A DNA stretch of 4,168 bases from a virus (lineage: Duplodnaviria > Heunggongvirae > Uroviricota > Caudoviricetes): the IMG/VR virus record IMGVR_UViG_2602041586_000003; one strand, 5' to 3'. A program made the translations under genes and the position numbers. The notes under the pieces are model-generated. The model made no database searches. It had not been told where the DNA came from and saw only the letters and a list, made by a program, of their open reading frames with translations. Shown piece by piece: positions 1 to 4,168 of this stretch. Position 1 is the first letter of the stretch. Each line of letters starts with the position of its first letter.

Positions 1-2001
1 CAGCCGCTCACTGCCGTCATCCGCTGCCACGGTCAGGCGAAGCAGGAAGCTCACGCCCTTCACCACCTTCGGCGTGTCCCAGCGGGCCAGCACCTGGTAT
101 TCCCCGCTGTCTGCGGTGACTTCTGCGGTCAGATGCTGCACTGCTGGCGGCGTGACACCATTCACCGTGCCGCTCTGGTCGCCGTCAAAGTGCGCCCCGT
201 TATCCACGATGGCCTCTTTTTCCGGTACATGCTGCACGGCGGTGATGGCATACGTGCCGTCATCGTTCTCACGGATACTCACACAGCGGAACAGGCGCTG
301 GCGCAGCGTCGGCAGCTTCAGCCCCCATACGCTGTATCCGGCAACGCCGTCAGGAACACGGCTCACTTTTACCTTCACGCCGTCGGTGACGGACTGGACC
401 TCCACGCTGACCGGATTGCCACTTCCGTCAACCAGGCTTATCAGCGTGGTACCGGAGGATGGCAGCGTGATTTCACGGTCGAGCGTCAGCGTCCGGGTCT
501 GGCTGTTCACCGCCAGCACGCGCCCGCCGGTGCTGATCCCCGCATAGTCATCATCGCAGATTTCAATAACATCACCCGGCACATGGCGAAGCCCTTCGGC
601 ACCCACGCTGAAATCCACGGTCTGCGTTTCCAGCAGTTCTGTTTTAATCAGCCACAGCCCGGCGCGGTGTGCCTGCCCCCGGCTGGTACAGCCAAAGGCA
701 TCCATCTTCGTGACGTTACGACCGTAACGGGCAATGGCCTGCGTATCCTCCACAAGCTCTGTTGCCGTCTCCCAGCCGTTGTCCGGGTCAATCCAGTTCA
801 CCTCAACGGCATTATGGCGGTCTTTCAGGGCGCTGAAGCTGTAGCGGAACGGCGCGCCATCATCCGGCATCACCACATTACTGCGGTTATAGGTCCACAC
901 CTTATCCGATGGTCGGTCCTGCACGAACGTCAGCGTCTGCCCGTTCCATACCGGCATACAGCGCATCGCCGAGCAGAAATCACTGAGCACATCCCACGCC
1001 TTGCGCTGTGTGGTCAGGTACGCATTACAGGTGATGCGCGGCTCCGTGCCGCCAAAGCCGTCCGGCACCGACTGGTCGCAGTACTGGCCGATGACATACA
1101 GCGCCCATTTGTCCACATCCGCCGCACCAAGACGTTTCCCCATGCCGTAGCGCGGATGGGTCAGCATATCCCACAGACACCAGGCCATGTTGTTGCTGTA
1201 TGCTGGCTTAAACGTTCCGTCCCAGATACCGCTGTATTGCCGCGTCTGCGGGTTATAGTTCGACGGCACCTGCAGAATACGCCCGCGCAGATGATAATTA
1301 CGGCTCACCTGCTGGCTGCCGAACTGCTCCGAATCCACCTGTACGCCGACCAGTGCCGTGTTCGGGTAGCACTGTTTCACATCGATGATTTCGGTGTATG
1401 ACGACCAGAGCGTTTTGTTCTGCAGCTGGTCTGTGGTGCTGTCCGGCGTCATCCTGCGCATCCGGATATTGAACGGGCGCGGCGGCAGGTTATCCACCAC
1501 CACCGAGGCCAGATACTGCGAGGTGGTTTTGCCCTTAATGGTGATGTCTTTTTCCGTCACCCAGCCACCATTACGCTGTATCTGAACCAGCAGGCGAACT
1601 TCCGACGGATTCCGGTCCCCCTTTGAGGTGGTTTCCACCAGTGCCTGCACACCGAAGGTAAAGCGCAGACGGTCGATGTTTGCAGACGTGATGGTGCGGG
1701 TGATCGGCGTGTCATATTTCACTTCCGTACCCAGCACCGTCTCGGAGCCGGAGGATTCAAACCCCTCCGGCGGTGTCTGCTCCTGCTCACCGGCCCGGAA
1801 CACCACCGTGACGCCGGAGATATTGGTATTCCCCTCAGTGTCCAGCACCGGCGTACTGTTCAGCAGCACGCTTTTTAATCCATCCACCGGACCTTCAACC
1901 GGCCCTTCGCTGATGGCATCGATCACACTCAGCAACTGCGTGGACTTCAGGTTGTCCTTCGCTTCGCGCGGGGTATGCCCCTTACTGCTGCCTTTACCCA
2001 T
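1..2001 (-). CDS. J: Tail tip / host-specificity protein J (central tail fibre), 5' partial: N-terminal 667 codons, 3' end lies beyond the window start
   Basis: Minus-strand ATG at 2001..1999 translates MGKGSSKGHTPREAKDNLKSTQLLSVI, the N-terminus of lambda gpJ as I recall it. The same frame at the window edge (1..39) reads RLTVAADDGSERL, matching gpJ near residue 655-667. Frame is exact (2001 = 3 x 667). I checked 1..420 codon by codon and found no stop; the rest is inferred from the high similarity. Absent from the ORF track only because it runs off the window. Confidence 0.93.
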   Translation of the reverse strand, partial: MGKGSSKGHTPREAKDNLKSTQLLSVIDAISEGPVEGPVDGLKSVLLNSTPVLDTEGNTNISGVTVVFRAGEQEQTPPEGFESSGSETVLGTEVKYDTPITRTITSANIDRLRFTFGVQALVETTSKGDRNPSEVRLLVQIQRNGGWVTEKDITIKGKTTSQYLASVVVDNLPPRPFNIRMRRMTPDSTTDQLQNKTLWSSYTEIIDVKQCYPNTALVGVQVDSEQFGSQQVSRNYHLRGRILQVPSNYNPQTRQYSGIWDGTFKPAYSNNMAWCLWDMLTHPRYGMGKRLGAADVDKWALYVIGQYCDQSVPDGFGGTEPRITCNAYLTTQRKAWDVLSDFCSAMRCMPVWNGQTLTFVQDRPSDKVWTYNRSNVVMPDDGAPFRYSFSALKDRHNAVEVNWIDPDNGWETATELVEDTQAIARYGRNVTKMDAFGCTSRGQAHRAGLWLIKTELLETQTVDFSVGAEGLRHVPGDVIEICDDDYAGISTGGRVLAVNSQTRTLTLDREITLPSSGTTLISLVDGSGNPVSVEVQSVTDGVKVKVSRVPDGVAGYSVWGLKLPTLRQRLFRCVSIRENDDGTYAITAVQHVPEKEAIVDNGAHFDGDQSGTVNGVTPPAVQHLTAEVTADSGEYQVLARWDTPKVVKGVSFLLRLTVAADDGSERL

Positions 2002-2013
2002 TCCTCACGCTCC
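2002..2013 (-). promoter_or_regulatory. Ribosome-binding region for J: GGAG (2013..2010) with 8-nt spacer, and GAGGA (2006..2002) abutting the ATG
   Basis: Minus strand reads ATGGAGCGTGAGGA-ATG directly upstream of the J start codon. Purine-rich Shine-Dalgarno-like motifs at appropriate distance. Confidence 0.5.
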
Positions 2014-2022
2014 ATAAACGAC

Positions 2023-2044
2023 AAAACCGCCCGCAGGCGGTTTC
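2023..2044 (-). terminator. Perfect 8-bp GC-rich hairpin (stem 2024..2031 / 2036..2043, loop 2032..2035) in the I-J spacer, followed on the coding strand by an interrupted T-tract; candidate attenuator or mRNA-stabilising stem-loop
   Basis: Minus strand reads AAACCGCC-TGCG-GGCGGTTT then TGTCGTTTAT. The stem is perfect and mostly G:C (5 of 8 pairs); the T-run is interrupted, so strong termination is not expected. It sits 15-20 nt upstream of the J ribosome-binding site. Confidence 0.3.
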
Positions 2045-2061
2045 ACATAAAACATTTTGCA

Positions 2062-2709
2062 TCAGCGACCAATCACCACAACCTGACCACCGTCCCCTTC
2101 GTCTGCCGTGCTGATCTCCTGAGAAACCACGCGTGACCCCACGCGCATTTCCCCGTACAGAACCGGCAGAACATTGCCCTGGGCAACCATGTTATCCAGT
2201 GACGAGAAATAGGTGTTCTGTTTGCCGTTATCTGTACTTGCTGCCGTGGGCGTCCTGGCTTTCGGTGCCAGCATCTGCGCCACTCCGCCCAGGATCATAC
2301 TGGCCCCTGCCGCATACATGCCCGATACAGCCGCGGCACCCAGCCAGCCCACAGGGTTCCACCATGCCACCGCAATCAGCGCCGCCCCCAGCACCGCCTG
2401 AAACACACCGCCACTTTTTGCTCCCGCAAGACGCGGAACGATGTGGATCACGGCACCATTTTTCAGCGGCTCATTAAGACGGGCTGATAATTCGTTTTCG
2501 CCTGCATCACGCCCGGCAATGCGCACCTGATACCAGCCCTCATTCAGTTTCTGACGAAACGCCGGGATCTGCATGGCCAGCGCCCGGATGGCTTCGGCCC
2601 CCGTTTTCACACGAAGGTCGATGCGGCGGCCAAATCGTTGCAAATCCCCGTAAAGGCAGATACGTGCCATGCCCGGTGACGCCAGAGGGAGTGTGTGCGT
2701 CGCTGCCAT
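2062..2709 (-). CDS. I: Tail assembly protein I (215 aa): N-terminal ubiquitin-like (beta-grasp) region ending in Gly-Gly, a Gly/Ala-rich hydrophobic segment, and a conserved C-terminal region
   Basis: ORF translation starts MAATHTLPLASPGMARICLYGDLQRFGRRIDLRVKTGAEAIRAL and ends NGKQNTYFSSLDNMVAQGNVLPVLYGEMRVGSRVVSQEISTADEGDGGQVVVIGR, matching lambda gpI as I recall it. Start lies 103 nt inside K, as in lambda. GAGAGG (2726..2721) lies 11 nt upstream of the ATG. Confidence 0.93.
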   Translation of the reverse strand: MAATHTLPLASPGMARICLYGDLQRFGRRIDLRVKTGAEAIRALAMQIPAFRQKLNEGWYQVRIAGRDAGENELSARLNEPLKNGAVIHIVPRLAGAKSGGVFQAVLGAALIAVAWWNPVGWLGAAAVSGMYAAGASMILGGVAQMLAPKARTPTAASTDNGKQNTYFSSLDNMVAQGNVLPVLYGEMRVGSRVVSQEISTADEGDGGQVVVIGR

Positions 2710-3350
2710 TTGTCGGTATACCTCTCTCGTTTGCTCAGCTGTTCAGGAATATGGTGCAGCAGCTCGCCGTCGCCGCAGTAAATAGCGGCATGATTCGGCA
2801 CCGATGAACCAAAACAGCACAGCAGCACATCGCCCGGCTGCGCCGCTGACAACGGCACCTGATACAGCCCCGTTGCCTCCATATTATCCAGATAGAGATT
2901 CTGACCGTGACGCCACCAGTCATCCTCACGATGAAAATCAGGCATCTCAATTCCCGCCAGATGGTAAGCATCCCGGAACAGCGTGTAACAGTCCGTCACC
3001 CCGTGCTCAAAGCGCCGCCCGGTAAGATGTGGCACACAGCGGAACTTGTGAATCGCCCCCCGGCAGACCAGCCACCACGGCAAATCACTCTGCACCTGCA
3101 GCCGCCGGTCGGCCTCACTCAGCCAGGGCAGAGCACCGGGGTGACTGTGGACCAGCGCCACAATCTCACCCTGCATTTCTGCCCGCAGCCAGTCCTCCGG
3201 AGCCATCCGGAAATACGCCTCCGGCTCACCGGAGATATTCACGCAGGGAAAATATCTTTCCCCTTCCGGCGTTCTCACCACGAAGCCGCACGACTCCGCT
3301 GGCGCACATCGCCGGGCGTGCGCCAGAATCGCTGATTCTGTCTCTGTCAT
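2607..3350 (-). CDS. K: Tail assembly protein K (247 aa): N-terminal JAMM/MPN metalloprotease-like domain plus C-terminal NlpC/P60 cysteine peptidase-like domain
   Basis: Translation MTETESAILAHARRCAPAESCGFVV... matches lambda gpK as I recall it. JAMM motif present: E-x-x-x-x-x-H68-S-H70-P-x(6)-S78-E-A-D81 (EIVALVHSHPGALPWLSEAD). NlpC/P60-type Cys at GVTDC121YTLF with downstream His residues (PNHAAIY, ELLHHIP). ATG at 3350 is 5 nt after the L stop, with no obvious Shine-Dalgarno, suggesting coupled translation. Confidence 0.93.
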   Translation of the reverse strand: MTETESAILAHARRCAPAESCGFVVRTPEGERYFPCVNISGEPEAYFRMAPEDWLRAEMQGEIVALVHSHPGALPWLSEADRRLQVQSDLPWWLVCRGAIHKFRCVPHLTGRRFEHGVTDCYTLFRDAYHLAGIEMPDFHREDDWWRHGQNLYLDNMEATGLYQVPLSAAQPGDVLLCCFGSSVPNHAAIYCGDGELLHHIPEQLSKRERYTDKWQRRTHSLWRHRAWHVSAFTGICNDLAAASTFV

Positions 3351-3355
3351 GGGAT

Positions 3356-4054
3356 TTACTGCGAAAGTTTGTTAATGGAAAGGAAGCCGCCAAAGTTGCC
3401 GACGTTATTGCGAAACTTACAGCCACTCAGGCATTTGCTGCATTTATCCTTCGTGATATCGGACGTCGGCTGATCATATTCATCCGCGACCGCCGGACCG
3501 TGATAACCGCACTCATCACCGCGATAGGTCCAGGTGCAGGTATTAGCCAGCATGATGCGGCCCGGAAAAACAGCGCCGTCCGTTTCCGTCGGCGTGGACA
3601 GTACAAAGGAGGCACTGACCGCGCTCAGTTCGCTGCACTGCTCAATGCGCCAGCGGCTGATTACCTCCTGCTCCGGATCGGCGTCACTGTTTCCGTTGAC
3701 GAAGTTCACCGCATCCAGAAAACGGGCGTAAACCTTACGCCTGACCACCGTTCCGCCGACCAGACTCTGCAGGTCTTCCGCTATGCCGGTGACCATGCCG
3801 TGCAGGTTAGAGACTTTCAGCGTTGGTCTTGCACTGGCTCCTTTGCCGTTCATCTCAAATCCGCTTCCCTGAATAGGGTACGCCTGATACTGTCGCCCCT
3901 GCCAGGTGACCGACTCACCTTTTTCGTTCTGCTCATTACAGAAAAAATAACGTTCTCCGCCGACCTCTGTCAGATCAATTTCCCAGAGCACGACCAGCGC
4001 GGATTGCTCCGTTTTAGTGCACTCATTGAGTGTTTCCTGCTGTATATCCTGCAT
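3356..4054 (-). CDS. L: Tail tip protein L (232 aa), minor tail protein with a C-terminal Cys cluster consistent with Fe-S coordination
   Basis: Translation MQDIQQETLNECTKTEQSALVVLWEIDLTEVGGERYFFCNEQNEKGE ... KCLSGCKFRNNVGNFGGFLSINKLSQ matches lambda gpL as I recall it. Cys173, Cys182, Cys205, Cys208 and Cys212 lie in the C-terminal domain. Start ATG overlaps the upstream stop as TGATG. AGAGG (4069..4065) lies 10 nt upstream. Confidence 0.94.
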   Translation of the reverse strand: MQDIQQETLNECTKTEQSALVVLWEIDLTEVGGERYFFCNEQNEKGESVTWQGRQYQAYPIQGSGFEMNGKGASARPTLKVSNLHGMVTGIAEDLQSLVGGTVVRRKVYARFLDAVNFVNGNSDADPEQEVISRWRIEQCSELSAVSASFVLSTPTETDGAVFPGRIMLANTCTWTYRGDECGYHGPAVADEYDQPTSDITKDKCSKCLSGCKFRNNVGNFGGFLSINKLSQ

Positions 4055-4168
4055 CAGTGAGTGACCTCTTCAAAGGTACAGTTAAAATCGGTATACATGG
4101 CATTATCCGAAATGCTCCACTCCCTGTGAAGTGGTCAACAAAAACTGGCCACCGAGTTAGAGTTTTTT
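4054..4168 (-). CDS. M: Tail tip protein M, 3' end only (C-terminal ~26 codons clearly readable); upstream in-frame TGA at 4135..4137 makes intactness uncertain
   Basis: The frame ending in TGA at 4056..4054 (overlapping the L ATG as TGATG, the lambda M/L arrangement) reads ...PLHREWSISDNAMYTDFNCTFEEVTH*. My recollection of the lambda gpM C-terminus is ...CAKWSSRVSMLRVEFSAEFEQVVN*; W, S, F, F, E and V align without gaps, plus conservative D/E, N/S, E/Q pairs. The same frame contains TGA at 4135..4137, and the other two frames show no M-like similarity. Confidence 0.5.
4065..4069 (-). promoter_or_regulatory. Shine-Dalgarno-like AGAGG for L, inside the 3' end of the M reading frame
   Basis: Minus strand reads AAGAGGTCACTCACTGATG, placing AGAGG 10 nt upstream of the L ATG. 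Confidence 0.4.

Follow-up and report, generated by a model that had tools for sequence, protein, structure and literature searches.

An IS911-like insertion sequence end joined to a 3' remnant of tail-tip gene M: a probable IS-associated deletion in a defective lambdoid prophage

Defective prophage remnants of the Qin, DLP12 and Rac type are common in Escherichia coli, and IS-associated deletion in a defective prophage is a known, ordinary and well-understood kind of event. Mosaic joints at gene boundaries are ordinary in lambdoid phages, and in lambda itself the tail-tip genes belong to an M-L-K-I-J module, in which M encodes gpM, a member of PF05939. Insertion sequences (ISs) of the IS3 family, including IS911 and ISEc52 of enterobacteria, transpose by a copy-out-paste-in route, and their transposase is made by programmed frameshift; the "frameshifted" flag of NCBI annotation is therefore normal for such elements. 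The programmed frameshift of IS3-family transposases has been summarised previously (PMC11708052). In the E. coli long-term evolution experiment, the IS3-family element IS150 was found to generate adjacent deletions without target duplications, which grew over time (PMC11708052).

The stretch of DNA analysed here, hereafter the window, comprises 4,168 nucleotides of a Caudoviricetes virus record (IMGVR_UViG_2602041586_000003), with its tail genes on the minus strand. It very probably includes the end of an ISEc52/IS911-like IS3-family element joined to a stub of gene M at an IS-associated deletion in a defective prophage. The minus strand of window 3950-4168 was used as a query against 5,426 complete E. 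coli genomes and GenBank phages. Positions 1-42 of this query correspond to ISEc52/IS911 copies, which occur in thousands of E. coli records, and to the IS911 copy of phages Sf6 and SfII. From position 43 onward the homology is to phage DNA; positions 43-219 match M/L of lambdoid prophages, and 866 genomes have a match that covers at least 80% of the query. The right end of the IS (ISEc52 family, IS911-like) thus occupies 4127..4168 (minus strand) of the window, where it matches base by base a 1,250-bp IS in E. coli AB66 (L001 7793..9042). It is oriented like the tail genes, and the window stops 42 nt inside it. Within this end, 4157..4168 (minus strand) holds the last three codons, KKL, and the stop TAA (4159..4157) of the transposase gene orfB, which in AB66 ends with ...ENRYWKKL and a stop at L001 9010..9012. 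The 27-nt right terminal inverted repeat (IRR) lies at 4127..4153 (minus strand) and ends with ...CCACTTCA, its IS3-family ...CA tip being at 4127; the paired arms are found in the AB66 copy.

A four-way alignment places the junction between IS and phage DNA at 4127/4126. The window and AB66 read ...TTGACCACTTCA/CAGGGAG, where the intact prophage of E. coli AZ147 reads ...GGGTTGTCTG/CAGGGAG; over a longer span, ...GTTTTTGTTGACCACTTCA/CAGGGAGTGG in the window and AB66 corresponds to ...CCGGGTTGTCTG/CAGGGAGTGG in AZ147. The junction of IS and M is rare, with a match spanning both parts of the query in 1 of the 5,426 complete E. coli genomes, namely AB66 (NZ_OZ547461.1). A search among contigs encoding the L protein of the window added two further assemblies, GCA_033900365.1 and GCA_041228035.1, so that the identical junction is present in three. 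Scans for the exact 39-mer of the junction gave 0 matches both in GTDB species representatives and in JGI metagenome contigs, results that are uninformative on its prevalence.

The AB66 copy, which is located immediately upstream of L, allows the element to be compared with the IS3 family over its full length, while the window itself shows only the last 3 codons of orfB. Its inverted repeats (L001 7793-7819 and 9016-9042) are 27 nt long, 78% complementary and have TG...CA tips; their arms read TGAAGTGGTTTACTGAATTTGGCCACC and GGTGGCCAGTTTTTGTTGACCACTTCA, and the minus strand of the window also reads ...GGTGGCCAGTTTTTGTTGACCACTTCA, ending at 4127. The orfA product of this copy carries the transposase HTH domain PF01527 (52 bits) and that of orfB the rve integrase-core (DDE) domain PF00665 (109.7 bits), and an A AAA AAG slippery site lies at IS position 324, where the orfA and orfB frames (0 and -1) overlap. 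The IS3-family features, namely TG...CA repeats and the orfA/orfB arrangement with its slippery site, are thus all present, those of the open reading frames as seen in the full AB66 copy. The element is 94.96% identical to IS911 of phage Sf6 over 1,250 bp, and NCBI labels it as an ISEc52 family transposase; an event of this kind is already captured by the standard annotation of AB66. There is nothing unusual in the AB66 element itself; what it lacks is a target-site duplication. Instead of a 3-4 bp duplication, it is flanked by TTA on the left and CAG on the right, both in AB66 and in GCA_033900365.1. This absence is no argument against the IS3 family, being expected of an IS located at a deletion joint.

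The IS is present many times in AB66, whose record has 18-20 matching places. The best partial match to the reciprocal junction (M up to CAG joined to the left inverted repeat), at 4.536 Mb of AB66, was considered as a relocated 5' part of M, for example after an inversion, and rejected; it belongs to a further ISEc52 copy, found in an unrelated island beside genes for a Hha/YmoA family regulator and an inovirus Gp2 family protein, and its flank, ...TCTGCAC, is short and similar by chance. The left flank of this second ISEc52 copy (L016, AB66 4530013..4542069, near 6000) reads ...TTATCTGCAC/IRL and resembles the sequence at the M break, ...TTGTCTGCAG; the likeness may reflect either chance or a target preference of the IS.

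What lies beyond the IS can be seen in the junction-sharing assemblies. AB66 carries, in this order, iss, 455 bp, the IS, the M stub, L, K, I, J and lom. The AB66 prophage and its intact sister in AZ147 share hokD, a DUF968 gene, rusA, Q, tRNA-Ile, iraM, holin, lysozyme, Rz and iss; AB66 aligns to AZ147 at 99.93% on the left of the IS, up to the IS end, and at 100% on the right. Between these flanks, 12,521 bp of AZ147 are missing from AB66, including HNH, terS, terL, portal, protease, major capsid protein and head-tail connectors, as well as tail tube, G/T, tape measure and M codons 1-94. The AZ147 prophage retains upstream of M an HNH endonuclease, a P27-type small terminase, an HK97-type protease, capsid and tape-measure protein. 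In all three assemblies a 1,250-bp IS, which in GCA_033900365.1 and GCA_041228035.1 is 100% identical to that of AB66, takes the place of no less than 12.5 kb of genes for packaging, head and tail, and the target is not duplicated. The left junction of GCA_033900365.1 is as in AB66. In GCA_041228035.1 (L008 1679..2928) the left IS end lies 1,298 bp further to the left (corresponding to AB66 L001 6495..7792), within the lysozyme gene, whose 3' end is additionally missing from this genome along with Rz and iss. The left end-point of the deletion in AB66 is 70 bp upstream of the HNH gene which precedes the terminase genes (AZ147 L004 12875..13225; AB66 L001 7338..7792), so that the morphogenetic module was removed almost exactly from its first gene.

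The surviving prophage is defective and comprises the lysis genes, iss/bor, the IS, an M stub of 23 codons and, still intact, L, K, I, J and lom. It resembles the Qin/DLP12/Rac-type remnants in that AB66 possesses hokD, the DUF968 gene, rusA, the Q antiterminator, lysis genes and a bor/iss homologue, and in that its morphogenetic genes were lost through IS activity. It differs in that this decay step appears recent in AB66, with flanks 99.9-100% identical to the intact sister and intact tail-tip open reading frames. The event at M likewise looks recent, because L to J are still open and L and I have the same protein accessions in the deleted (AB66) and intact (AZ147) prophages. The prophage is to be scored as defective. 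Neither heads nor tail tubes nor a tail tip can be made by the junction-sharing prophages, so that the loss of M in particular is moot.

As for how this structure arose, the IS most likely first inserted in M at codon 95, at the CAG of ...TCTG/CAGGGAG. One or more IS-mediated adjacent deletions would then have run leftward from the left end of the IS, taking away about 12.5 kb, namely M codons 1-94 and the entire module for packaging, head, tail tube and tape measure. A fixed right junction combined with two nested left end-points favours a series of adjacent deletions that started at the left end of the IS. The same pattern is known from IS150 (PMC11708052), in that a single IS stays behind, no target duplication is present and the loss, of kilobases, is one-sided. 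A further likeness is the second lineage, in which the deletion extended further from the same IS end. The IS150 deletions were observed over time, whereas the history here is read from natural isolates, and the order of events is inferred, because the ancestral simple insertion was not found among the 5,426 complete genomes; the reciprocal junction (M up to CAG plus the left inverted repeat) had no place in them covering at least 80% of the query. The locus would illustrate neatly, in natural isolates, how an IS3-family element drives the stepwise decay of a prophage: one junction is conserved, the left end-points are two and nested, and a nearly identical sister prophage, still intact, can be set beside it. 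It opens no new biological question.

A possible but less likely course is homologous, RecA-dependent exchange within a pair of ISEc52 copies in direct repeat, the first located in M and the second some 70 bp upstream of HNH. It would yield the same end state as an adjacent deletion, one IS and no target duplication, and its expected product is what is seen, a single IS with different flanking triplets (TTA, CAG) and both flanks from one prophage. AB66 is also rich in copies of the same IS, and recombination between ISs has been named as a frequent cause of missing target duplications (PMC11708052). However, the left junction 1,298 bp further left in GCA_041228035.1 needs yet another copy and another event under such recombination, serial adjacent deletions from one IS end are simpler, and neither a single-insertion nor a double-insertion intermediate was found in the 5,426 complete E. 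coli genomes. Adjacent deletion is therefore our preferred reading.

Whether the genome of the window shares the same far side is approached through its likeness to the three assemblies. The window is 100% identical to AB66 over 1763..4168, the 2,406 nt beside the junction. It has 36 mismatches to AB66 and 28 to GCA_033900365.1, all located in J at 160..1762, and it is identical to none of the three junction assemblies (28-36 mismatches), the best match being AB66 at 99.1%. Mismatches confined to J indicate that the window came from a fourth genome, or from a lineage with a recombined J, and the differences at 160..1762 suggest either a recombined J segment or a separate lineage sharing the IS junction. 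As the window ends 42 nt into the IS, with the far side unseen, and as its J differs from that of all three assemblies, its own genome might hold a simple IS insertion, with the rest of M and the morphogenetic module intact beyond the IS. This we regard as improbable, for the large deletion accompanies the base-identical junction in three of three assemblies, the window is identical to AB66 throughout the 2,406 nt next to it, and the reciprocal junction of M with the left inverted repeat occurs in 0 of 5,426 complete genomes. The genome of the window probably carries the same deletion.

Multi-copy IS elements are classic sites of misassembly, and the join might accordingly be a repeat-induced chimera of an IS copy with the M/L region. 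Such an artefact is very improbable, since the junction lies at the exact IS tip, base-identical, in three independent assemblies with megabase-scale contigs, namely the complete AB66 chromosome and two assemblies on 4.7-Mb contigs, and each of the three has the full IS and a consistent prophage flank across the junction. The sequencing or assembly error which the earlier note had offered as one cause of its finding is unlikely for the same reason.

That finding concerned the 3' end of the M frame. The M-frame stop is the TGA at 4056..4054 (minus strand), which overlaps the L start ATG (4054..4052) as TGATG, and a second TGA at 4137..4135 (minus strand) is in the same frame, separated from the M stop by 26 codons (PLHREWSISDNAMYTDFNCTFEEVTH). 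The earlier note had read the second TGA as a stop within M, and its position and frame on the minus strand were confirmed. This TGA (4135..4137) is, however, the mid-part of TTGACC (4138..4133) within the IRR and is outside M; it is IS inverted-repeat DNA read in the M frame. A stop there is unsurprising by chance, because the 14 codons concerned are non-coding IS DNA in an arbitrary frame and the probability of at least one stop is 1-(61/64)^14, about 0.49. The 12-nt insertion-like patch proposed to contain the TGA is instead part of the IS3-family right end at 4127..4168. The proposed alignment of ..SVASFC-stop-PLH.. to lambda ..IKVTC-AKW is spurious, being IS DNA translated in the M frame, and the true M reads ...RTVRVVC/REWSIS... 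at this point. An M frame shifting upstream was looked for by reading the three minus-strand frames beyond 4126, none of which (0 of 3) resembles or continues the intact ...RTVRVVC, and every junction-sharing genome lacks a continuous stop-free M frame once flanking sequence is included. A nonsense codon in a roughly 12-nt patch of a continuous M gene, or an M frame that shifts upstream, has in its favour the in-frame TGA alone and is practically negligible as an explanation, given that the 42 nt bearing the TGA are an IS terminus unrelated to M, that intact M has GGGTTGTCTG at the corresponding point, and that M does not continue upstream of 4126 in any minus-strand frame. The suggestion of an inactivated M in a defective prophage held, in that only a 3' M stub remains beside the IS.

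The stub occupies 4054..4126 (minus strand) and matches the 3' end of intact M in AZ147 and many other genomes at 100% identity. Its 73 nt comprise the final base of the Cys95 codon followed by 23 codons (REWSISDNAMYTDFNCTFEEVTH) and the stop; the start and the 5' part of the gene are absent. The intact allele in AZ147, WP_001330090.1, has 118 aa and matches PF05939 at 109.8 bits (cut-off 39); it reads ...RVVCREWSISDNAMYTDFNCTFEEVTH, and its C-terminal sequence is ...RTVRVVCREWSISDNAMYTDFNCTFEEVTH. In a Pfam search, the 26-residue frame between the stops of the window had no PF05939 match. No complete M open reading frame with a start was found between a tape-measure gene and L; IS DNA precedes the 23-codon stub, and the tape-measure gene itself is absent from the junction-sharing genomes. 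The window thus carries a fragment of the M gene, not a PF05939 member protein, and the stretch should be labelled in annotation as an IS right end plus an M 3' fragment, not as M with a premature stop.

The last 21 residues of the M frame in the window, WSISDNAMYTDFNCTFEEVTH, are identical to those of lambda gpM, WSSRVSMLRVEFSAEFEQVVN, at 6 of 21 positions (29%), which bears out the roughly 30% identity estimated in the earlier note. The low similarity is a property of the whole allele and not of a local patch, because the entire M allele is a different, common member of PF05939; its identity to lambda gpM is 40% across the whole length, in an alignment of 109 residues. About 865 of the 5,426 complete E. 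coli genomes join this M 3' end to the same L. The intact allele belongs to the same family as lambda gpM, lies directly upstream of L with its 3' end overlapping the L start as TGATG, as in lambda, and is followed by genes in the lambda order. It differs from lambda in its 40% identity and in being part of a prophage with HK97-type head and P27-type terminase genes, and the window keeps 23 of the 118 codons of this non-lambda allele.

The joining of IS and M also created a promoter-like sequence. Hybrid promoters derived from ISs are a known phenomenon, and IS911 has been reported to have an outward -35 element in its IRR (PMC9330008). This motif probably corresponds to TTGACC at 4138..4133 of the window, judging from its spacing. 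As the -35 of an outward promoter into L, TTGACC was considered and rejected, for the hexamers 16-18 nt downstream (AGCATT, GCATTT and CATTTC) are poor -10 boxes. A consensus scan of the region found 3 sites, against 0.2 expected from shuffles, and the only one reported at the junction uses TTCACA across it. This promoter-like hybrid site, at 4102..4130 (minus strand) and facing L, consists of TTCA/CA (4130..4125), a 17-nt spacer and GATAAT (4107..4102), with 10 of 12 consensus matches; intact M has TCTGCA at the same -35 position, a 3/6 match. That a putative sigma-70 hybrid promoter drives L-K-I-J (and lom) independently of the Q antiterminator, with the remnant kept for a host function, is a speculation to which we give little credence; if true, it would mean retention for the host instead of simple decay.

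Downstream of the stub, the window carries a lambda-type tail-tip module with the expected family domains, lambda gene order and open frames. Gene L (3356..4054, minus strand) is intact, encodes 232 aa, matches PF05100 at 331 bits and is 93.5% identical to lambda L; its product has the accession WP_021570076.1 in the deleted prophage of AB66 as well as in the intact one of AZ147. Gene K (2607..3350, minus strand) is intact with 247 aa and Prok-JAB and NlpC/P60 domains; its identity to lambda K is 95.0%, measured across the 199 residues that the lambda annotation assigns to K. Gene I (2062..2709, minus strand), also intact, encodes 215 aa with PF06805, overlaps K by 103 nt and is 77.6% identical to lambda I. 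Of gene J, the first 667 codons (1..2001, minus strand) are present, open and without stops until cut by the window edge, and are 98.5% identical to lambda J residues 1-667. The near-identity to lambda asserted earlier for L, K, I and the J N-terminus is accurate for J and acceptable for L and K, but does not extend to I.

The mosaic joint which had been proposed at the M/L overlap was found where expected. In 12-nt ungapped blocks anchored on TGATG, identity to lambda collapses exactly at the overlap of M stop and L start, with 2-6 of 12 positions matching upstream of the M stop and 7-12 of 12 downstream, and a blastn alignment of the window to lambda covers 1..4074 at 92.3% and ends there. 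Since the M allele is 40% identical to that of lambda and stands with HK97-type upstream genes, whereas L, K and J are 93-98% lambda-like, the M/L boundary is a genuine but ordinary mosaic joint at a gene boundary relative to lambda.

Some smaller features of the module were observed as well. At the 5' end of L (3956..4054, minus strand), the first approximately 100 nt are 73-80% identical to lambda, compared with 92-98% further in, so a graded zone follows the M/L boundary and near-identity is not immediate. The I protein of the window is 8 residues shorter than lambda I, and its 77.6% identity compares with 95-98% for its neighbours K and J; I appears to be another mosaic patch within the tail-tip module. 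K starts 5 nt past the L stop. The lambda reference K (compared at L003 1633..1800) is annotated with 199 aa, and the lambda K frame meets a stop 7 codons above its ATG, so that lambda has no continuous frame for the 48 N-terminal codons of the JAB region.
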